Origin: Curvularia clavata
Lineage: Eukaryota
Direction of reading: 5' to 3'
Assembly: GCA_023920165.1 (NCBI GenBank)
Contig: CP089280.1
Span: 806,001 to 870,000, forward strand
DNA length: 64,000 nucleotides
The translations under genes and the position numbers were made by a program. Below the pieces are notes generated by a model. That model was not told the DNA's origin. It was given only the letters and a program-made list of their open reading frames with translations, and did not search any database. Numbering within the stretch: the stretch's first letter is position 1; every line of letters begins with the position of its first letter. Below, piece after piece: positions 25,018 through 60,582 of the stretch.

Positions 25018-26310
25018 ATGCGGTTCTCGACGGTTGCTCCTCTCTTTGCTGCCACTGCTCTTGCGCAGTACAGCACATCGCCATCCAACTCGTCTTGGAC
25101 GCCCGGCCCTGACAAGGATGGCAAGTACGAGATCTCGTCAGAGGGCATCCGTGCGCGCTTCATCCCCTACGGCGCGTCCATTTCCAACCTCTTCGTCCCC
25201 GGCAAGGGTGGTGTAGAGCGCGATATTGTGCTCGGCTTCGACAATGCGACTGCGTACGAGGGCGAGGTGCACCCTCATCTTGGCGGTGTACCCGGCCGTT
25301 ATGCCAACCGCATTAAGAACTCGACCTTCACCATTGACGGCCAGGACTACCACATTACGCCAAACGAGAACAATGGTGCCGACACTCTCCACGGCGGATT
25401 GGACGGATGGGACTGGCGCAACTTTACCGTTGTTGCCCACACTCAGGATTCCATTACCTTTTCCATTGTCGACCCCGATGGCAAGGAGGGTTTCCCGGGT
25501 GAGGTTGTCAGCTACGTAACCTACACCTTGACGCCAAACACCTGGCACATCAAGATTGTGGCGCTTGCTACCACCAAGAAGACGCCCATTATGCTGACTT
25601 CCCACGTAAGTTGGAACGAATTCCGTGTATTTCCCAAAAAAAAAGCTAATTAAACTAGACCTACTGGAACCTGGACGGTTTCGCCAACCCCGATGACCTG
25701 ACTACTTTCAACCACACTTTCCACATCCCCTACTCTGGCCAGCGTGTCGGTGTCGACAACATCCTCATTCCCGACGGCACCATTCTGCCCAACGAGCAGT
25801 ACTCCGTCAACGACTTCTGGTCCGCACCCAAGCACATCGGCGCCAACCACACCGCGCCCGAGCTCCTTGGAAACTGCGGTTTCAACTGCACTGGCTACGA
25901 CAACTGCTACCTCGTCAACCGCAGCCCTGCTGAGGCACTTGACTGGCGCAACTCTGGCCCTGTTGCTTCGCTCGCTAGCGAGTGGTCTGGCATCAAGCTC
26001 GATATCTACTCTGACCAACCTGCTTTCCAGATGTACAGCTGCCCAGGACAGGATGGTACGTAACATGACCTTACTATATAGATTCCTAAATAATAACAGC
26101 AAACCAGGTACCCTTCCCATTAAGTCCACCCAAGGAGCCGAGGGCGGCAGCCGCTTCGTCCCTAAGTACGGCTGCGTCGTCATGGAGGTCCAGGACTGGA
26201 TCGATGCTATTAACCACCCCGAGTGGCAGCGCGAACAGTACCAGATTTTTGGTCCTGCTAGCAAGCCTTATACGCTCGAGGCCGCCTATGTCTTCTCGGC
26301 TACGGAGTAG
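25018..26310 (+). CDS. Secreted aldose 1-epimerase (galactose mutarotase), ~395 aa
   Basis: Introns 25606-25658 and 26056-26107. Signal peptide MRFSTVAPLFAATALA; motifs GRYANRI, LHGG, EGFPG, HTYWNLDG and EVQDWIDAINHPEW. TATA (TATATAAA) at 24921. Confidence 0.94.
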
Positions 26311-27255
26311 ACTCTTAGAGTATTGAGGAGTTGGGAGAGGATGATACCACGAATTGATAATGTAATCCGCACATGTTTAGACGTGTGATAATTGGTAATA
26401 GAAGCTTTTGGGGCTTGAAACTTGAGTGTAACTTATGCGTTGTGAAAAGATGCCTACGACGTCAAGTCATGTTCACGTTCCACACCAGACGACGATAGAT
26501 CCGTGAGGCAAAGACGGCGAAACTAAGCGCTGTTGCGTATACTCAGCCAATAGCAAGCATCCATCTCTAGACCCTGTTTGAACTTTCAACCACGACAAGG
26601 TCTGACTATGTGTTTTGTTCGCGTACCCAGTTCACACTCATCACCGCATACCGAGGTGACACCAAATACACCTTCCAACAACTTATTCGGGATGTTGAGC
26701 GCGTGTTTTCATCAAGCAACGCACAAGTGTGTACGATGTACAGCAGTAAAATGTCAACAACAAAAATGTTGCTGTGCTAGCATGGCATGGCATTGCCCGC
26801 TTATTATGGATACCTTTGCTTGTTCCAGGTTATGTTATCCGATCTTGATGTTGTTTCACCAACGCCGCTTTGCTCAGCTACTTGCAGTCTGCTATGTAGC
26901 CATCCGAGTGTTTCGTCCCTTTGTATAATATATTCGGTTCGTAGGGAAGAGTGACAGTGTGTGTGTTCGGAGCTATCACTTCACGATGGGACTGGACCTA
27001 CACAGGGAGAATGCTCAGGAATGCTGTGTGTGACTGTCAATTTTGCAAAGCTGGAGAATTTGTTGTTAGTGGACGAACATAGAGCTAATATAAGCATGCT
27101 CAGGATGTGTTTGGATACTCGAAGGGCGAGGCGATTGATGATTGTTTGCTTGGAGTAGCTTGGGGCTGCCTCTGGTCCCCGAGTATGAGAGCATGCGTGA
27201 TATCAGCCCGTTTGCTCTCATGCCACACACTGTACCATTTTTTTTACACTTCGTC

Positions 27256-27264
27256 TATATATAA
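27256..27264 (+). promoter_or_regulatory. TATA box about 30 nt upstream of the putative Pol III ncRNA
   Basis: TATATATAA at 27256-27264, upstream of the 5' strand of the terminal helix at 27287. Confidence 0.6.
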
Positions 27265-27286
27265 CCCAATATCCATTCCCCATTCC

Positions 27287-27600
27287 ATCAACCAGTCTAC
27301 TTACCTCAGCGGTCGGGTGGGCTCCTAGCAACGAAAGACGACACTGGGTTCCCGATCGAGCAAAATAATTCCCCAATCACTTTGGGATGCCCTAAGGAGA
27401 CAGGATGCCCTGACCACCGCAGGAAGGCAAGATTGCAACATGTAATAGACTGCTGACAGGCATAGGAAAGTCTCGAATAACCCAGTGTTGTCGTCACCAA
27501 CATTGGGTTGCTAAGCTAGGAGGGCGGCCGTCTGGAGTTCGAATCCCGGGACGGCCGTTGGAGCAACAGAAGTTGAGCTGAGTGGATTGGTTGATTTTTT
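27287..27600 (+). ncRNA. Unassigned ~310-nt structured RNA with RNA polymerase III signals
   Basis: A-box-like TACCTCAGCGG (27302-27312), perfect B box GTTCGAATCC (27537-27546), T6 at 27595-27600. Nested complementary segments: 27287-27302 with 27580-27595; 27322-27329 with 27515-27522; 27337-27350 with 27479-27495; hairpin 27524-27558. Confidence 0.8.
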
Positions 27601-27611
27601 GTATTTTTTTT
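27595..27611 (+). terminator. Oligo-T Pol III terminator
   Basis: TTTTTT followed by GTATTTTTTTT immediately after the 3' strand of the closing helix. Confidence 0.65.
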
Positions 27612-28613
27612 ACTCTCTTTTTGCACTTTTTTTTACGCCTTACCCTAATAAATAGAGCGTGTGTAGATACTTTAGAATATATTACTTACTGCTAAGAGCT
27701 ATAGCGACTGGACAGCTATATGTACTGTACAACCCTAATTGCTAGAATAAGCTAACTACTGCGAGTCTCGTATACGGGCTGCAGAATTGATCTGTCTATG
27801 CATGCTCTCTTTCGATAAGGGCGTGGTGTTGCTTACACAGACGGCACGTGATACACGACTATACATTCTAGGAATACCAGTTAACTACGGCTCAGCTTAT
27901 TATATCATCTATCCACCCATGCAACATAAAACACGTATCGAGCTCTGTTGGAAACCCGCTGTCTTTGCTTGGTTCTGACTCGCTTTGCAGGCCAAGTGCA
28001 TCGCAGTCCTTCTATTGTCAAGGATATTGCCGGTTCGCTGATCGATGTTTTCCTTGCACCATGGAATGAGTCCCTGCACGGATGTTGTTTTGCCGCCCAC
28101 CGAGTTGCCATGATCCTCATGCTGGCAACATGATTCCATTGACCACGTCTTCAACCTGCTGCTCGAACTAATACCGCGGCGCTTGTATGGGTGTTTTAAT
28201 GTTGAGGTTGTCGCCTGCCTAGTTCCTTTGGGCTACGCGCGAAACGGCCGGCGGCTACGTACGCCGTCAGGCAGCCTCATCACCCCACTCTTTAATACTT
28301 CAACGTCCCACACAGCCTGCCTGACCGGAGAATATACAACTCCTACACCCAATCAGCGCTACATGCGAGGCGTCCCGTCCCGCCAAGTCTGCGATGCGAG
28401 GCTTCCGCTTTTCCTCCGTAACAGAGAATGTGGCGTAGCGCAATGCAGAATGCCCATCTTGCCTAGTCTCAGACATTCCGAGACGGGGGCCAATTCGTTA
28501 GGCCGGGCGCCTAAATGCTGTACACCTTGTATCTTTTTTTAAGTATATCACGTTATATCCTCGAAGTAGCCTGTGCTTTCTCTTCCATCCGCCAGTCCCC
28601 CGGGTTTGCAACA

Positions 28614-30698
28614 ATGGCCTACGAACCTGTCGGCCGCTCCCAGGGCCCACGCATCTCCACCAGCGACGACATGGAGCCAAGAACACGATACGACGCCGGC
28701 TCGTACAACAGTGAACCTTCAGCAACCGATTCCCAGTACTGTAGAACGGAAGATGGCGGCAAAGGTGCGACTTGGTCCTCAAGGGAGACCATCAAAGACC
28801 AATGGCCTTTGCAGTCGCAAAAATTGGCGCCCATGACTCCCATGCGAGGGTTCATCATGGTTTTCGACGTAATTCTAGCATCGATGCCTATAATGTTTAT
28901 TGGTAGGTCCTGCATTGCCTCGCCTCATTATTGCCTATTGATTTGGTGCAGCTCTTGCCATCGTGGCTGCCAGACTGAACGGCCAAGAAGTTTCTGATTA
29001 CGGTACCAAACTAAAAGAGACGCTGCTTATATCGCCAACCCTCTTCCCACTCCTCTTCGCAGCCTTGATGGGAAGATTCTTTCGCCATTTTGGCCTCTGG
29101 CTCGCCCAGCGAGGAACAACTCTCGGTCGCCTGGAACAGCTAGTCGGCTGTCAATCCGTCTTCTCTGCGCTTGAGCGTCAGATTAGTCTGGGTACATGGT
29201 CCGTTGTCGGGGTGGCATCAATCCTGATCTGGCTCCTCTCTCCAGTCGGAGGTCAATCGGCACTGCGTCTGCTAGACCAGGAAACTGGCGTAATCCGTTC
29301 GACTCACCAGCTGCGTTACTTGAACCCCATGACATTCATGGACAGCATTATGAGCTCGTCAAGTTTCATCAACGAAGGTCGGATTAGCTTCACGTCCATC
29401 ACCCTTGCAGCTTTACTCAGTAGTTCCCGATACCAGAACACGTCCATGGACATGTGGTGGGTTTCTCTGCGTTGTTGCCGAACAATATTAGGTTAACATG
29501 ATCCAGGGGAAACGTCAAACTCCCTCTATACCGCTCCATTGAGAACAGCACTTCAGACGAATGGAAAATCGTCCCGCAATTGACCAGCCAAAACGTTACA
29601 TATGCTTCTTTGATAGGCATTCCGGTACTTGGTCTATCCAATGGCGTCAGCAATTTTACTGTCCGAGCCCGCCAATGGGATGTAACGTGCTCGAGCAATA
29701 AAGAAGTTGATAAAAAACCATCAAATTTCGGAGATGAATACCCATGGCAAGTAAGCATCATGACGAACGCTACGGTGGCATGCATGAATGGGAAGCAATG
29801 CGTGAAGACGATGTGCGCACGCTATCCTTGTCCAATTCAAAGTATTAGTCTTGGCAAGAAAAATCCAGATGTATTCACCATCTCTAACTGCGACCTGTCA
29901 TTTGGAAATTTTGAAGCGGCGGTGAAATGCACAGGGAAAGCATGTGCTGTGGAAAAGATGAGGAAAGTCCCCTTGTTGGACGATAAATACCCGATCGGTT
30001 ATGATATTGCAATTCGCAGCACATTCGTCACCAATCAAATGATGCACATGCCTATCATGGACGTTTATAAGGTCTCAATGCCACAAGCTCGAGGCTCGAC
30101 GACCCTGGAGAGGTGGATAAAAGACCCTTCCAACTTCATTGGTCAATGGGCTGGCAATGTCGGTCTCTGGACACTATCGCCAGCTGAGTTTGGGGATCGA
30201 TTTACGATCCTATATAACACCTTCTGGCAGTCCACATACGCAATGCCCGCTTTGGCTGGCAATGTTCCAGCATCGACGCTTGAAACTGGATGGATGAACG
30301 ATACAACTACGACTTTCAATACATCGTTTGTTCCGACGGAAGCATTCCTAACCACGGACACTAAGTCAGCGTACAAGACCAACTGGAAGTGGTTCACAGC
30401 GCTCCTGGTCTGTTCCGTCATACTTCTGATCGCATCATACACTGCTCTTGTTCTGAAATACATTACCATAGCCCCGGACATCATTGGCTACGCATCTTCG
30501 CTGACAATTCTGAACCCGTACGTTCCGACACCAACTGGAGGCACAACATTGAACGGTTTGGAGAGAGCCGCCTTACTGCGGGATATGCCGGTGCGGATAG
30601 GCGATGTTACTCCAAACGAGCCTGTAGGCGTGATTGCTTTGGCAAAGGCCGACACGGGGCAAGTAGCAAGATTGGACAGGCAACGATCGTACATTTGA
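28614..30698 (+). CDS. Hypothetical multi-pass membrane protein, ~661 aa
   Basis: Introns 28903-28951 and 29457-29506 splice in frame. Several hydrophobic segments; motifs WLLSPVGGQSALR, DMWGNVKLP and PDIIGYASSLTILNPY...GLERAALLRD. Confidence 0.85.
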
Positions 30699-32260: not shown

Positions 32261-33693
32261 TTATTGTGACGTGGATGTATTTGCAGTGACTCTCTTCTCC
32301 TCTTCCGCCGCATCTTTCGCAGCTCCATCTTTCCTTGGCAGGTTCTTCAGACATGGCGCATAAAACAGCTGGCCGTTCCATGCACCTCTGACTGTGCCCA
32401 CGAAGACGACGCACCAGAGGATGATGACAGCGACGGAGAAAATCGTGCCCAGTACCCGGAAGAACAGGCTCGGAATGATGTGACCGAGTTGAATGGTACT
32501 CAGTGCGAATACTCCTAGGGGAAACGTGAAACCCCACCATCCCATGGAAAATGGAATAGGACGCGATTTGTATATGGAAGCCAGGGCGAAACAGAGCCAG
32601 GTTATTCCAAAAGACCACATGATGAGAGCTGTGAAGATGCCAATGACGTAGAAGATATCTCCAGCAATAGGAATGTCGGAGAAGGATTCAGTCTGTGGAA
32701 AGACACGGCGACAGGTTGAACCGAGATGTAAGACGGCATAGCCACCCAAACCCAAAGGACCCAGCGGCAGGAAAGACGACACGATAATCTCACGAGGTGG
32801 CAGTTTGTGCAGTGCCAGGCGCGTATAGTACATGACTATTACCGTCATGGATAGAGGAACGGCCATGCCCCACATGATGTAAGATGCCAGTATCGTTCCA
32901 AGAGCATGCTCTGGATTTGTCAAACTCTCCGCAACTCGGGCGCCCGCACCAGAAGCTACCACAGACGCCGAAATGGGCAGCAGCTGTGCCGCTGTAATTT
33001 TGTCCAGAGCCTGGCGACGACTTGCCGATATCAAAAGGACGGTCAGAGAAATGGTGACTGTAACAGCCGCCACAGAGTCAATCATCCAGCAGACCCATGC
33101 AAATTGCACAGCCCAGTGTCCCCAGTAGGGAATACAAATCGAGCACCAAGCTGATATGAGCGTCGAAAAGCCCATTGGAACCGTACCCAGAAACAGCGAA
33201 TTGGCACTGTCGGCAATCATGACGGGCCATATCTCCGGATACGCGACATACCGGAAGACGGAAATGGCTAAGGCGCATGAGAAGAGAATAGCATTGAAGC
33301 CGAAGAAAAAGACGGAGAGCCAGTAGAGCCAATCTGCAGGGAACGGGATGGAAACGAGAAGCAGAGACACGACGCCTGTGCCTGTTGTTACGGAGAACCA
33401 GGAGGGAGAGAAGTTGCGGACAATCCTACGCCAGCCACGCTATTGGCAGAAACAGAGAATGTTAGCTCAACAAGGTAAGTTTGCATGATGCAAGTAGTGA
33501 GAAAACGTACGTCGTATTTCGTCGTGTAGTCCTCTGGTTCGACGCTCTCCTGTGACCCACTCGACTCGGGTGCAGTGGTCGTTCCTCTAGTAGCCCCTCG
33601 CGACCTGTGGCGTTGCACGGAAGTATCTTGCGTCGTGGGCGGCCACAGCGCAGGGTTGTTCGTTGCTACACGGTCTAATTCGTACTCATCCAT
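32261..33693 (-). CDS. SSU1: Sulfite efflux pump / C4-dicarboxylate transporter (TDT/SLAC1 family), ~453 aa
   Basis: Intron 33440-33510. Motifs GWRRIVRNFSPSWFSVTTGTG, SLFLGTVPMG, HKLPPREIIVSSFLPLGPLG, FSMGWWGFTFPLG and LFYAPCL. Confidence 0.88.
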
Positions 33694-57849: not shown

Positions 57850-60582
57850 ATGTCTCGGATGCAGCAAGACCAGTTCGTCGATGATGACGAGGAGGAGTGC
57901 TGCCCCCTCTGCGTCGAGGAGTTCGATCTGTCAGATAGGAACTTCCGGCCCTGCCCTTGTGGCTACCAAGTGCGCTTCCCTCGCCAAAACTCGGTGAAGC
58001 TGCCCCAGGCCGCCATGCTAACAATCTTCCACAGATATGTCAGTTCTGCTACAACAACATCAAGACGACCATGAACGGCTTATGCCCCGCCTGCCGCCGA
58101 CCCTACGATGACTCCACAATCGAGTGGAAGACCATCTCTCCCGAAGAGTGGGTCCCTTGCTCCCTCCATGTATGAACACTCTCTGACCTTGGGCAGGATG
58201 GCACAGCACAAGCAGCAGATTGCGCAAAAGGCCAAGAAGAATGCGCAGATGCGGCAAAAAGAGGCCCAAAAGGCCGAAGCTGACTCGCTCAGCCGCAAGC
58301 ACCTTTCCGGTCTTCGTGTCGTCCAGAAAAACCTCGTGTACGTCACTGGCCTTCAACCGACAGTACGAGAAGACGAGCTGCTCAAGACGCTGCGCGGCGA
58401 CGACTACTTTGGTCAATATGGCAAGATCTTGAAGATTGTTGTGAGTAAGGCCAAGGAGAACGCACAGCATCAACAGTCGGTTGGTGTCTATGTAACGTTT
58501 GCTCGCAAGGAGGATGCCGAGAGGTGCATCGCTGCTGTCGACGGTTCGCACAATGGCGACAGAGTACTGAGGTACGCAACAGCTCCTTCATGACATGTGT
58601 CATCTAGCAAGCTGACATCATACAGAGCACAATTCGGCACGACCAAATACTGTTCGGCCTATCTTCGCGGCGAGACATGCAATAATCGCAATTGCATGTT
58701 CCTACACGAGCCCGGTGAAGACAACGACAGCTTCACGCGCCAAGACCTTTCTATGATGAACTCGATTCAAACGCAACAGCCGTCCCAGTCGTCGACGTCC
58801 CGACCTGCCCCTCCTGCTCATCAAGGGCCTCCTGTCGCCGCCGCAACCCCGATGCACCGGCAGGATAGTACGGATACGTCTAGCTCAATACACGACGCAC
58901 CTGGTCTACCCGCCACAGCGAACTGGGGCAGCAAAGCTCTGCTAGAACGCCGTGCAAGTCGGTCAACAACCGCTTCGAATAATGCTAGTCCTATGGTCAC
59001 GAACGCGGTTCCCGCCCAAGCGTCGAAAGCACCCAAGCCAGCAGAAGCTCCGAAAAAGAAAGGAAAGGAAAAGGAAAAGGAAAAGGAAAAAGAGAAGGAG
59101 AAGGAGAAAGAAAAGGAGAAAGATAAAGACAAGGAGAAGGAGAAGGAAAAAGAGAAAGAGAAAGACAAGCAGAAGGAGAAAGAAAAAGACAAGGATAAGG
59201 ACACGGAAAAGTCTCCGCAAGCATCAAAGTCTACGACCTCACAGTCTACCTCCTCTTCCACGCCGGCGTCCACTACGCGCCCTTCCAAGCCCCGCAACAA
59301 GGACTTCCCGGACCTGCTGAAGATTATCTGCTCGCCTGATTTCAAGTTTGTGTTCTCTAGTGCGGTTCTTTCCGAGGAAGAGTTGAAAGCTGTGACCGAA
59401 TTCCCTCAGTTGCTTGATCCAAATGGCGGTGCAAAGCGTCGTGCTATGAAAGAAAAGGAGAAAGAACTTGCTGCGTTACGTGAGGCTGAAGCCGAAGCGA
59501 AGGCAGCCTCCCAGCAACAAGCACCGGCTGCTGAACGAGAGGACACCGAGGCAACTGCAGGTGGCAGCCTACAGTTGGGCGGAGAACCCGAGGACGGACC
59601 TGAAACGAGCAGCAACCACCTCAATCAACATGCAATCGCACCGCCCAGTCAGCAGGGTTTTGGTGGAAGCCTCTTCGGCCAAAACACGCCTCTGGCTGAG
59701 GACTTCAGCACCTTGGGACTGAGCAACAGAGGTTTGACGCCCCAACAGCAACAGCAAATTCTGCTTTCCAACTTCAAGTCTGGCACTCAGTCTACTGGTC
59801 TGCTGAGCAACATGCAAAATACGCAGGCACAGCAGCATGGAATGACTGGAAATGCTTCGGGACATAACAGGCACACATCTCGCTTCAGCTTCGCCAACGA
59901 CAGTGCTTCGGCTTCCGCAAATGTGCAACCTGTTGCGAATCAGAAATTGATGAACCAGCAAAACTCGATGATGCCAAAGAACGCAAATCAGTTCAACCCA
60001 ATGTCCCAGCACCAGCCTCTGGGTGGACAATTTTTCACCAACGTACAAGGACCGCCTCCAGGACTGAAGCCAACTGGCACGCCTCCTGTCAGCGGGACTG
60101 GTATGTTTGGTCAAGGTCACGGCTTTGCTACTGGTGGTCTACCCTATGGGTCAGGCGCCAATGCAAGGAACAACAGTGATGCAATGTATCAGGATCTGCT
60201 TCGCAGCCGTAACATGGACGGTGGTGCTAGGCTAGCTGATGCTGGAAAGCGTGAGTCAATGTTTCCTTCCTTCCTTAATCAACATCCCACTACCTCTACA
60301 CCTGCCCCAGCCCCTGGTCTCCTAAGCTTCCCTTATGGGCCTTCGCCTGGCGCTTACCAGGAATCTGGTTCGCAGAAATCCAAGAAAAAGGGAAAGAAGC
60401 ATAGGCACGCAAACACTTCCTCCTCTGGAGGAGGTGGCCTTGCTGATGTCCAAGACCCAAGTATCTTGCAGGCAAGGTTGCATCAAGGTGGCATGGCTGG
60501 CCAGGGCCTGTATGGGCAAGGTCAGAGTGGGTTTTCTTCGCTTTATTCCAACAACAACTACGGCGGCGCTGGACGATGGTAG
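57850..60582 (+). CDS. NOT4: CCR4-NOT E3 ubiquitin ligase Not4 (C4C4 RING, RRM, CCCH); short isoform, ~854 aa
   Basis: Introns 57970-58034, 58148-58196 and 58572-58625. RING CPLCVEE...PCPCGYQICQFC...CPACRRPY; RRM RVVQKNLVYVTGL...YFGQYGKI; GTTKYCSAYLRGETCNNRNCMFLHE. Confidence 0.95.
59053..59211 (+). repeat. Purine-rich coding repeat encoding an alternating (KE/KD)n tract in Not4
   Basis: KKKGKEKEKEKEKEKEKEKEKDKDKEKEKEKEKEKDKQKEKEKDKDKDTEK. Confidence 0.9.

Follow-up and report, generated by a model that had tools for sequence, protein, structure and literature searches.

The window, the 64-kb stretch of a Curvularia clavata contig analysed here, carries in the intergenic space between two genes a unit of about 310-315 nt on the + strand, which shows the sequence features of a type 2-like Pol III gene, namely an upstream TATA box, an A box, a B box and an oligo-T run. 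The TATA box TATATATAA (27256-27264) lies 23-31 nt 5' of the base that opens the terminal stem described below; followed by ATCAACC 15-30 nt further on, it occurs a single time in the window and in none of 100 shuffled sequences. The A-box-like element TACCTCAGCGG (27302-27312) starts at +16 from the first paired base, 27287, and agrees at 7 of 9 specified positions with the A-box consensus TRGCNNAGTGG. The B box GTTCGAATCC (27537-27546) is located 235 nt from the A box, in the loop of a GC-rich hairpin, and AGTTCGAATCC (27536-27546) fits the B-box consensus GGTTCGANTCC with one mismatch. The terminator (27595-27611) consists of T6 (27595-27600), GTA and T8 (27604-27611). The predicted transcript, whose exact ends are provisional, would run over about 310-315 nt from an A after a pyrimidine run to T6 (27287-27601). 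When the sequence was re-read, the TATA box, the A-box-like element, the B box within a hairpin and the T6 run listed in the original prediction were all found in place.

These signals stand in the order and with the spacing expected for a Pol III gene. Taken alone, the B box is not above chance, as the window contains 3 occurrences of GGTTCGANTCC at up to one mismatch where 4.4 would be expected. The case for a putative Pol III-type gene rests on the conjunction of the signals and on the B box being kept in a paralogue. A further stretch located upstream (26960-27246), with a TATA-like start and a T8 end, gave a fold z of only -1.44.

Folding of the + strand of the unit with ViennaRNA returned an MFE of -126.7 kcal/mol (z -5.69), a value equalled by none of 100 shuffles, while the minus strand reached -106.8 kcal/mol (z -3.04), so that the + strand folds better by 20 kcal/mol. 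When 20 overlapping 315-nt segments covering 25712-29351 were compared, the unit was the sole strong outlier, with a z of -5.4 against -2.5 for the next segment. G-U pairs accounted for 10 of the 105 pairs in the + strand MFE structure and, together with the preference for this strand, they point to selection on RNA and not on a DNA palindrome. The strong, strand-specific fold agrees with the earlier claim of a real structured unit with a Pol III-type layout.

The two ends of the unit, which had been proposed to pair, do so in two outputs. The repeat search recovered a 22-nt inverted repeat with 82% complementarity (27287-27308 / 27574-27595), and the MFE structure contains a terminal stem whose 5' strand (27287-27310) and 3' strand (27572-27595) form 17 bp and 6 bp separated by a C/C mismatch, with four G-U pairs and a mean pair probability of 0.97-1.00. 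Inside this stem, a 14-bp helix pairs 27337-27350 with 27479-27492 at a probability of 0.99, the same segments being returned by the repeat search as a 14-nt inverted repeat with 93% complementarity. Beyond it lies a variable multibranch tip (27356-27476, pair probabilities 0.32-0.95 in the MFE structure), where a 5-bp helix (27356-60/27472-76) closes the hairpins 27372-86, 27388-429, 27432-46 and 27451-62. The GC-rich B-box hairpin (27523-27559) comprises 11 bp, a bulge and 3 bp, with GTTCGAATCC in the loop, and its segments 27525-32 and 27550-57 are complementary at 8 of 8 positions in the repeat search; a purine-rich 3' junction strand (27560-27571) links it to the terminal stem.

With one exception, the internal helices previously listed were recovered: the MFE structure contains the helices of 14 and 5 bp, the hairpin with the B box and the four tip hairpins, whereas the helix between CTCCTAGC and GCTAGGAG is replaced there. 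CTCCTAGC (27322-27329) would form the 5' side of the helix closing the long arm and is complementary to GCTAGGAG (27515-27522) at 8/8 positions; the MFE of the window copy instead pairs 27321-32 with 27560-64 and 27507-13, and the helix, when forced, lies 3.1 kcal above it. The same helix is the MFE choice in the sequence variant from run X15 described below, in which a CG insertion breaks the competing helix. A third arrangement is offered by CAACATTGGGTT (27498-27509), which duplicates 27341-50 and can pair with 27479-27490 in a local 12-bp hairpin, with -122.4 against -126.7 kcal/mol when forced. The middle part has three alternative folds, about 4 kcal apart at most, which counts against the reading of the unit as a gene for a structured RNA.

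Read assemblies were then considered. The RNA-Seq run X15 contained one 284-nt contig covering 27305-27586 and nothing outside the unit, its ends lying no more than 18 and 15 nt from those predicted for the transcript, assembled contigs as such carrying no information on transcript starts, ends or strand. This contig differs from the window copy by five substitutions and four indels (+2, +1, +1, -3). Four of the five substitutions fall in unpaired bases and the other, A27338>G, turns an A-U into a G-U pair, so that pairing is kept; three inserted bases extend the 14-bp helix to 17 bp, and the 3-nt deletion sits in a hairpin loop. Once rebuilt, the variant folded at -129.7 kcal/mol (z -5.7), with 88 of 105 pairs common to the window copy. 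Since the indels would shift any reading frame, the unit is non-coding, and it is probably transcribed. An identical contig from run X11 (27259-27497) starts upstream of the predicted start, which counts against the gene reading; this run also gave a T-run match, and neither match is informative on transcription. Run X18 covered 27621-27771 alone, outside the unit.

Run X14 bears the species label of the window, while its RNA label is a guess, and its coverage was confined to 27304-27572 of the 701 bases considered. It contained the window copy (151 nt, identical) and at least three diverged copies. With these copies the unit is not a lone gene, a point on which the original prediction is not supported as worded, and they touch on the many dispersed copies with target-site duplications that it had named as the mark of a SINE. 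One paralogue shares with the window copy the A-box block (27304-27328) and the helix/B-box block (27505-27531) around a different core, of 138 nt as against 176 nt. It has a shorter B-box hairpin and yet an intact GTTCGAATCC, and three transitions opposite G in the 3' strand of this hairpin keep the pairing in 3/3 cases. The contig of this paralogue measured 1233 nt and had a mean depth of 319, compared with 2.4-3.5 for the other copies. Two observations count against the gene reading, namely that at least one other copy has its B box destroyed and that the copies differ by indels, as decaying repeats do. Finally, a C-G to G-C swap was found at matching terminal-stem positions, in the 5' end of the paralogue and in the 3' end of another copy; as the two halves come from different contigs, the swap is only suggestive.

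The occurrence of diverged copies brings in the main rival explanation, a live one that is not the verdict and that we regard as somewhat unlikely, namely that the unit is a SINE-like Pol III-transcribed retroposon or a short dispersed repeat. The copies would then be insertions, the window copy would simply happen to be intact, and the structure would either serve mobilisation or be inherited. The finding of at least three further diverged copies in one run, with indels, a difference in core length and one ruined B box, is in line with such an origin, as are the many short internal duplications returned by the repeat search within the unit and a 14-nt direct repeat (13/14 identical; 27237-50 / 27603-16) that brackets the TATA box, the gene and T6. 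This candidate duplication is, however, T-rich and ambiguous; it recurs a third time at a distance of 23 nt, and it would enclose an upstream TATA box that a Pol III transcript does not carry. A perfect TATA box at the right distance is not expected at random retroposon insertion sites. The 64-kb window has no second copy by blastn, a weak match at 58774-58839 being GC-rich and probably coding DNA, and the helices are kept despite the changes between copies.

A comparison can be made with the elements of Aspergillus fumigatus, where tRNA-related SINEs have been described that occur in low copy number, measure 140-493 bp and have A and B boxes in degenerate form (PMC5063351). According to the sections of that paper dealing with AfuSINE2, these are low-copy units with a Pol III promoter and degenerate boxes, in the same size range of 140-493 bp, some of them transcribed and none with a cloverleaf (PMC5063351), all of which resembles the unit studied here. 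In the same sections, both boxes of these elements are placed within one tRNA-related head at the 5' end, and target duplications of 4-14 bp are reported, as is an ACT-repeat tail at the 3' end of one case (PMC5063351). None of these three traits is clear in the window unit: a tRNA-related head is absent, the boxes lying 235 nt apart and not about 40, and the unit ends in a stem and a terminator, with no A-rich, microsatellite or LINE-like tail. It is because this tRNA-like head and a retroposon tail are absent that the SINE-like origin is only a live rival.

The inverted repeats could also suggest that no Pol III gene exists and that the unit is a foldback or MITE-type DNA element, or a piece of a structured Pol II transcript, with its motifs arisen by chance. 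This we consider highly unlikely. The 22-nt terminal inverted repeat, 82% complementary, and the nested inverted repeats do make up a palindromic layout, the B-box match does not by itself exceed chance and the contig from X11 begins 5' of the start predicted here. For a DNA element, however, the much better + strand fold would be unexpected, as would the fact that every imperfect helix pair is a G-U pair on that strand. Another X14 copy has two T runs after the stem in its 3' flank, and T runs past the 3' repeat shared in this way make the unit asymmetric; no short target duplication adjoins the repeat ends. Against a chance assembly of motifs, the TATA box, A box, B box and T6 follow one another in the right order and at the right spacing.

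The unit was then compared with known RNA classes. Covariance-model scans with Rfam 15 at the gathering threshold returned no match in the whole window, the SRP, RNase P/MRP, tRNA, U3 and Afu_* families being included. With E up to 10, the region 27150-27700 gave a single chance match (F6, which scored 14.9 bits where the gathering score is 46), 27345-27485 gave none, and 27495-27605 gave three chance matches, the best of which reached 11.3 bits, its gathering score being 70. Such a scan had been proposed along with the original prediction, and it yielded no real match to a known family, Afu_* included. The statement that the unit is not a tRNA, 5S or U6 also held, since neither ARAGORN nor the Rfam scans gave a match: ARAGORN reported no tRNA gene in the window at its default score, with introns allowed as well, and made two low-score calls at -ps80. 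RNase P/MRP RNA, in which CR-I and CR-V form P4 after P1-P2-P3, was rejected: Rfam gave no match, and P2/P3 are missing from the stretch that separates the end stem from any candidate for CR-I. GGAAAGTC (27465-72) is CR-I-like and ACAGAA (27567-72) CR-V-like by consensus; the topology is wrong for RNase P/MRP and ACAGAA is not retained in the X14 paralogue. By consensus features, U3 and box C/D RNAs (UGAUGA absent), H/ACA RNAs (3' ACA absent), Y RNA (Ro-type stem absent) and telomerase RNA (one CCCTAA only) were set aside.

Sequence searches in other genomes gave similar outcomes. A pattern scan of metagenomes found 23 loci, none of which blastn linked to the unit at E up to 1e-3; all of them lie in apparently bacterial coding regions, and one unrelated tRNA-Ala was noticed near one of these loci. 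The pattern scan of prokaryote genomes had no match, and a protein search using a spurious 65-aa minus-strand ORF as a proxy for homologous DNA returned no candidate. In the metagenome and prokaryote genome scans no homologue was found outside near-identical relatives, which counts against the gene reading. Searches of the literature on SRP RNA of Aspergillus and Neurospora, fungal SINEs with a B box, Aspergillus ncRNA, SINEs or Pol III in Pleosporales, Curvularia and Bipolaris, and SRP families of Dothideomycetes provided no description of such an RNA, one that may nonetheless have been published.

A derivation from SRP (7SL) RNA was examined separately and is considered improbable. Under this explanation the unit would be a diverged SRP paralogue that has lost helix 8, and the X14 copy at a mean depth of 319, against 2.4-3.5 elsewhere, would be the true SRP RNA. 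The unit shares with ascomycete SRP RNA the size class, the presumed Pol III transcription, a UGUNR motif and a rod shape overall, long and with hairpins branching from its 3' strand. According to the relevant parts of PMC4605306, helices 10 and 11 occur widely among the SRP RNAs of fungi and ascomycetes lack helices 3 and 4. The segment 27413-27437 reads ACCA-3-CAGG-3-GCAA-3-TGCA, by consensus the four loop motifs of helix 8 in the register usual for them. This relaxed pattern is single in the window and matched in 0 of 100 shuffles; it was, however, composed after inspecting the sequence. Helix 8 is characterised by symmetric and asymmetric loops and a GNAR tetraloop. The unit has no canonical AGG-3-GNAR-3-AGCA pattern; of the 6 base pairs that should separate the helix 8 motifs only 1 can form, and the motifs are located on the 3' side of another predicted hairpin. 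The earlier statement that the unit is without a working SRP helix 8 is thus confirmed, as the stems cannot form. The UGUAAU (UGUNR) motif (27441-27446) lies in the tip and not in the end (Alu) domain, where the part of PMC4605306 on this motif describes it, and the paired ends of the unit enclose no UGUNR-bearing end domain. Moreover, no Rfam SRP model scored at E up to 10 on the segments of 551, 141 and 111 bases, and alterations of helix 8 are reported in basidiomycetes and not in ascomycetes (PMC4605306).

The variable arm raises a last alternative, that the unit is a Pol III hairpin precursor of milRNA-like small RNAs, in which the A- and B-box parts would act as promoter and processing handle while the arm is diced; we rate it as very improbable. 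The relevant sections of PMC3547838 report that the major milRNAs of Neurospora crassa are made by Pol III and that one of them comes from a transcript that contains a tRNA and is cut by RNase Z. The unit would similarly be a fungal Pol III transcript with hairpins; one N. crassa case is linked to a tRNA-like moiety (PMC3547838). The B-box hairpin of the unit resembles a tRNA acceptor/T-arm minihelix, and from copy to copy the ends that carry the promoter are kept and the long arm changes. The helices of the window unit differ from the N. crassa pri-milRNAs in being short and branched: the longest uninterrupted one has 14 bp in the window copy and 17 bp in the relative, and four hairpins form the junction at the end of the arm, which would make a poor Dicer substrate. 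The X15 contig, furthermore, spans almost the entire unit.

On balance, the explanation that we tentatively place first, at a little short of an even chance, is that the window copy is an intact member of a small, lineage-restricted Pol III-type family in a Curvularia-like fungus of the Pleosporaceae, encoding a stable structured ncRNA that would act as a protein-binding scaffold. A protein encoded in the flank of the unit is 100% identical to that of Curvularia clavata. The fold, the layout, the lack of a known family and the RNA-library contig inside the predicted ends support in part the Pol III-type ncRNA originally proposed, while a lone gene is not supported. We infer the Pol III dependence, the exact ends, the stability and the function of the unit. 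TFIIIB would bind the TATA box at about -27, and TFIIIC would bridge the A box (+16) and the distant B box (+251), as it is known to do at other Pol III genes that encode no tRNA. The polymerase would start near 27287 and stop in the T6/T8 runs. The resulting product of about 310 nt is predicted to be a three-way junction made of a 23-bp terminal stem joining both ends, followed by a short U tail, an arm of about 200 nt whose tip varies between copies, and a 14-bp hairpin carrying the B box. End stem, A-box strand, long arm, B-box hairpin and end stem follow each other in the order of a tRNA gene, which suggests that the family probably grew from a tRNA gene, with the promoter kept and the cloverleaf not.

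Precedents for such an arrangement exist. The S. cerevisiae genes SNR6, SCR1 and RPR1 are non-tRNA Pol III genes with a TATA box, an A box and a distant or adapted B box. The window unit resembles them in its TATA box at about -30, its A box near +16, its faraway B box and its oligo-T terminator, and SCR1 in particular in having tRNA-type promoter blocks inside an RNA that is not a tRNA. It differs from them in resembling neither U6 nor SRP nor RNase P RNA, whether by sequence or by Rfam, and in the position of the B box, in the loop of an intratranscript hairpin 235 nt from the A box. Animal vault RNAs, of about 90-140 nt, are also made by Pol III and carry their A and B boxes in conserved pairing ends, with a centre that differs from one paralogue to the next. 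The unit is like them in layout alone, with A/B boxes in end-stem parts and a variable centre, as vault RNAs are shorter (about 90-140 nt) and the unit shows neither sequence similarity nor an Rfam match to them; vaults are not known from fungi.

Almost nothing is known of Pol III products of filamentous fungi beyond tRNA, 5S, U6, SRP and RNase P RNAs. A bolder possibility, which we hold to be doubtful, is that the unit belongs to an undescribed and abundant class of Dothideomycete Pol III RNAs, derived from a tRNA gene and folded as a three-way junction of about 300 nt in which the conserved end stem and B-box hairpin, both bearing promoter elements, frame a variable arm. Such a class would have the layout of the vault and Y RNA families and would imply an unknown ribonucleoprotein. 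Compact promoters of this kind, which combine a TATA box with A and B boxes, belong to the type that serves to drive guide RNAs in fungi. The unit itself may be a new ribonucleoprotein component or the first short retroposon of this kind described in Pleosporales; alternatively, it may be a case of a tRNA gene promoter recycled for another RNA.

The promoter and terminator signals of the predicted gene (27287-27601, 315 nt, forward strand) are all present. The TATA box (TATATATAA, 27256-27264), the A-box-like element (TACCTCAGCGG, 27302-27312) and the T6 terminator (27595-27600) were read directly from the forward strand and the B box (GTTCGAATCC, 27537-27546) was located within a GC-rich hairpin (27523-27559), in its loop, each at the position assigned to it in the original prediction; a second T run (T8, 27604-27611) follows the T6. 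B boxes with at most one mismatch occurred 3 times in the window against 4.4 expected, while the TATA box followed by the start of the stem was a combination unique in the window and matched by 0 of 100 shuffles. Since a B box of such quality is unremarkable by itself, the case depends on the signals in conjunction.

The unit returned a minimum-free-energy (MFE) fold of -126.7 kcal/mol (z -5.69); among 100 dinucleotide shuffles, 0 were equally good. The opposite strand reached only -106.8 kcal/mol (z -3.04) and 10 of the 105 pairs predicted on the forward strand were G-U, making the structure strand-specific, as for an RNA and unlike a DNA palindrome. When 20 overlapping 315-nt windows were scanned between 25712 and 29351, only the unit stood out strongly (z -5.4, against -2.5 for the next-ranked window). 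A repeat search recovered both the mutual pairing of the ends and the nested inverted repeats originally described. High pair probabilities, 0.91-1.00 in the main runs, were obtained on the forward strand for the terminal stem (27287-27303/27579-27595 and 27305-27310/27572-27577), a 14-bp helix (27337-27350/27479-27492) and the B-box hairpin (27523-27559), whose 3-bp tip showed a value of 0.50. The middle part is less settled, as the MFE joins 27321-27332 to 27560-27564 and 27507-27513, while the helix CTCCTAGC/GCTAGGAG of the original prediction lies 3.1 kcal above it. [quoted passage not shown]

The segment 27479-27490 has two mutually exclusive partners, 27339-27350 in the long-range 14-bp helix or 27498-27509 in a local 12-bp hairpin (27479-27490/27498-27509, 4.3 kcal above the MFE), and these partners are near-duplicates (ACACTGGGTT/ACATTGGGTT); the segment could act as a conformational switch or represent a duplication scar. 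Further repeats, several of them connecting the promoter region with internal segments, include an exact 9-nt duplication, GGATGCCCT, within the tip (27385-27393 and 27403-27411, 18 nt apart), ATAACCCA present both in the promoter region (27261) and in an internal segment (27477), and ATTCCCCATTC in the promoter region (27275) paired as a repeat with the internal ATTCCCCAATC (27368). Small duplications seem to have enlarged the unit.

In the 5'-to-3' direction the unit presents the end stem, the strand bearing the A box, the long arm, the hairpin of the B box and the end stem again, an order matching that of acceptor, D, anticodon arm, T arm and acceptor in a tRNA gene, and by this analogy it probably descended from one. 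The statement that it is not itself a tRNA was borne out, as ARAGORN detected no tRNA gene in the 64-kb window, with nothing credible when introns were allowed, and no Rfam 15 family reached its gathering threshold over the same sequence. The Rfam comparison proposed with the original prediction, extended to E values up to 10 on the flanked unit (27150-27700), the tip and the 3' part, returned chance matches only. Words similar to those of RNase P/MRP RNA (GGAAAGTC and ACAGAA) are present in the wrong topology, and this candidate was rejected. No ATG-initiated ORF of at least 25 aa occurs on the forward strand inside the unit, and a spurious 65-aa minus-strand ORF had no relative among 5.8 billion proteins.

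An origin from SRP RNA was suggested by the segment 27413-27437, which reads ACCA-3-CAGG-3-GCAA-3-TGCA and thus carries, in the usual spacing and register, the four consensus loop motifs of helix 8. No other match to this relaxed pattern occurs in the window and 0 of 100 shuffles contained one, but it was composed after the sequence had been seen. The original claim that the helix 8 motif is lacking holds for the canonical version with AGCA, and only 1 of the 6 loop-separating pairs is possible; loop-like motifs are nonetheless present, in the predicted hairpin but on its wrong side. No Rfam SRP covariance model responded on the unit with its flanks or on the tip at E values up to 10, and we consider this origin very improbable, even if a published account (PMC4605306) describes ascomycete SRP RNAs devoid of helices 3 and 4 and often bearing extra helices 10 and 11, so that a rod with side hairpins would not be foreign to SRP RNA. 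A milRNA precursor (cf. PMC3547838) is an unsupported and improbable alternative.

Just upstream, the stretch 26925-27246 shows a TATAATATA-like start, 300 G/U-rich nt and a T8, and includes a perfect 9-bp hairpin (27185-27193/27213-27221); its overall fold was not significant (z -1.44). An ORF for an SSU1/TehA-type sulfite efflux pump (PF03595) lies on the minus strand at 32264-33370; its product shares 100% identity with a protein of Curvularia clavata and 86% with one from Bipolaris victoriae. The source of the window is accordingly a fungus of the Pleosporaceae (Dothideomycetes) and not Aspergillus, which the checks proposed with the original prediction had presupposed.

Four public runs labelled RNA or possibly RNA were compared with the unit, all as assembled contigs. 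X15, a true RNA-Seq library (oligo-dT metatranscriptome), contained one 284-nt contig lying wholly within the predicted RNA (27305-27586), 18 and 15 nt from its ends. Set against the window copy, this contig, derived from a relative, shows 5 substitutions, 3 insertions (4 bases in total) and one 3-nt deletion; these indels would shift any reading frame, indicating that the unit is non-coding. The variant, rebuilt by applying the edits to the window sequence, folded at -129.7 kcal/mol (z -5.7) and had 88 of the 105 pairs in common with the window copy. Four of the five substitutions fall in unpaired bases and the fifth changes A-U to G-U, the insertions lengthen the 14-bp helix by three pairs, and a CG insertion disrupts the MFE helix 27326-27332/27507-27513 while sparing that of the original prediction. 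X11, whose library type is not on record, contained an identical contig whose start, at 27259, lies upstream of the predicted one.

X14, which shares its species label with the best DNA run and whose RNA label is merely a guess, covered only 27304-27572 of the 701 bases compared. It includes the window copy (151 identical nt, depth 3.5) and three others. A 1233-nt contig (mean depth 319) matches only 27304-27328 and 27505-27531, with 138 nt between these blocks against 176 in the window copy, a core 38 nt shorter. Here GTTCGAATCC is intact in a shorter hairpin (loose ends of the contig), whose 3' strand carries three transitions opposite G with pairing kept at all three. The remaining two are short contigs (depth 2.4 and 3.1) with 80-90% identity and indels, in one of which the B box is gone. 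Between the 5' end of the 1233-nt copy and the 3' end of a further one, the two sides of the end stem carry matching C-G to G-C changes, which are suggestive only as they lie on different contigs. The depth of 319, against 2.4-3.5 for the other three, could mean that this copy is a strongly expressed master gene whose flanks are poorly covered, or that it is embedded in some other abundant transcript or repeat. No second copy was found in the 64-kb window; a three-block pattern returned 23 metagenome loci, all in seemingly bacterial coding regions and none related by blastn, and a stricter pattern had no match in a prokaryote genome collection.

The several decaying copies and numerous internal duplications speak for a SINE-like repeat, the main rival. 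Related 14-mers of the ATTTTTTTTAC type (13/14 and 11/14 identity in a direct-repeat search) lie 5' of the TATA box (27237-27250) and 3' of the gene (27603-27616 and 27626-27639), thus bracketing both, and could be a target-site duplication or merely T-rich terminator and promoter context. This candidate duplication is, however, of low complexity with a third copy nearby, the A and B boxes lie outside any tRNA-like head, a retroposon tail is absent, and a perfect TATA box at -27 is unexpected where insertion is random. The unit contrasts in head, tail and duplication with the Aspergillus fumigatus AfuSINE2 elements, as described in PMC5063351. We regard a SINE-like origin as unlikely and tentatively favour, as the best reading, a member, intact and transcribed, of a small Pol III-type gene family restricted to its lineage. 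The original interpretation as an unclassified Pol III-type RNA gene thus stands in part, with the correction that the unit is one of several copies.

TFIIIC bridges a near A box and a distant B box in yeast SNR6 and SCR1; by analogy, it may connect here the A box with the B box 235 nt away, while TFIIIB would bind the predicted site at the TATA box and termination would occur within the T runs. The product is predicted to be a stable, La-type U-tailed RNA with a three-way junction. In layout alone the unit resembles the vault RNA families, and vaults are not known from fungi. The locus is a real, unclassified and probably transcribed Pol III-type RNA gene belonging to a small family with decaying members, among whose copies the promoter-bearing ends of the RNA would be conserved and the arm would vary.
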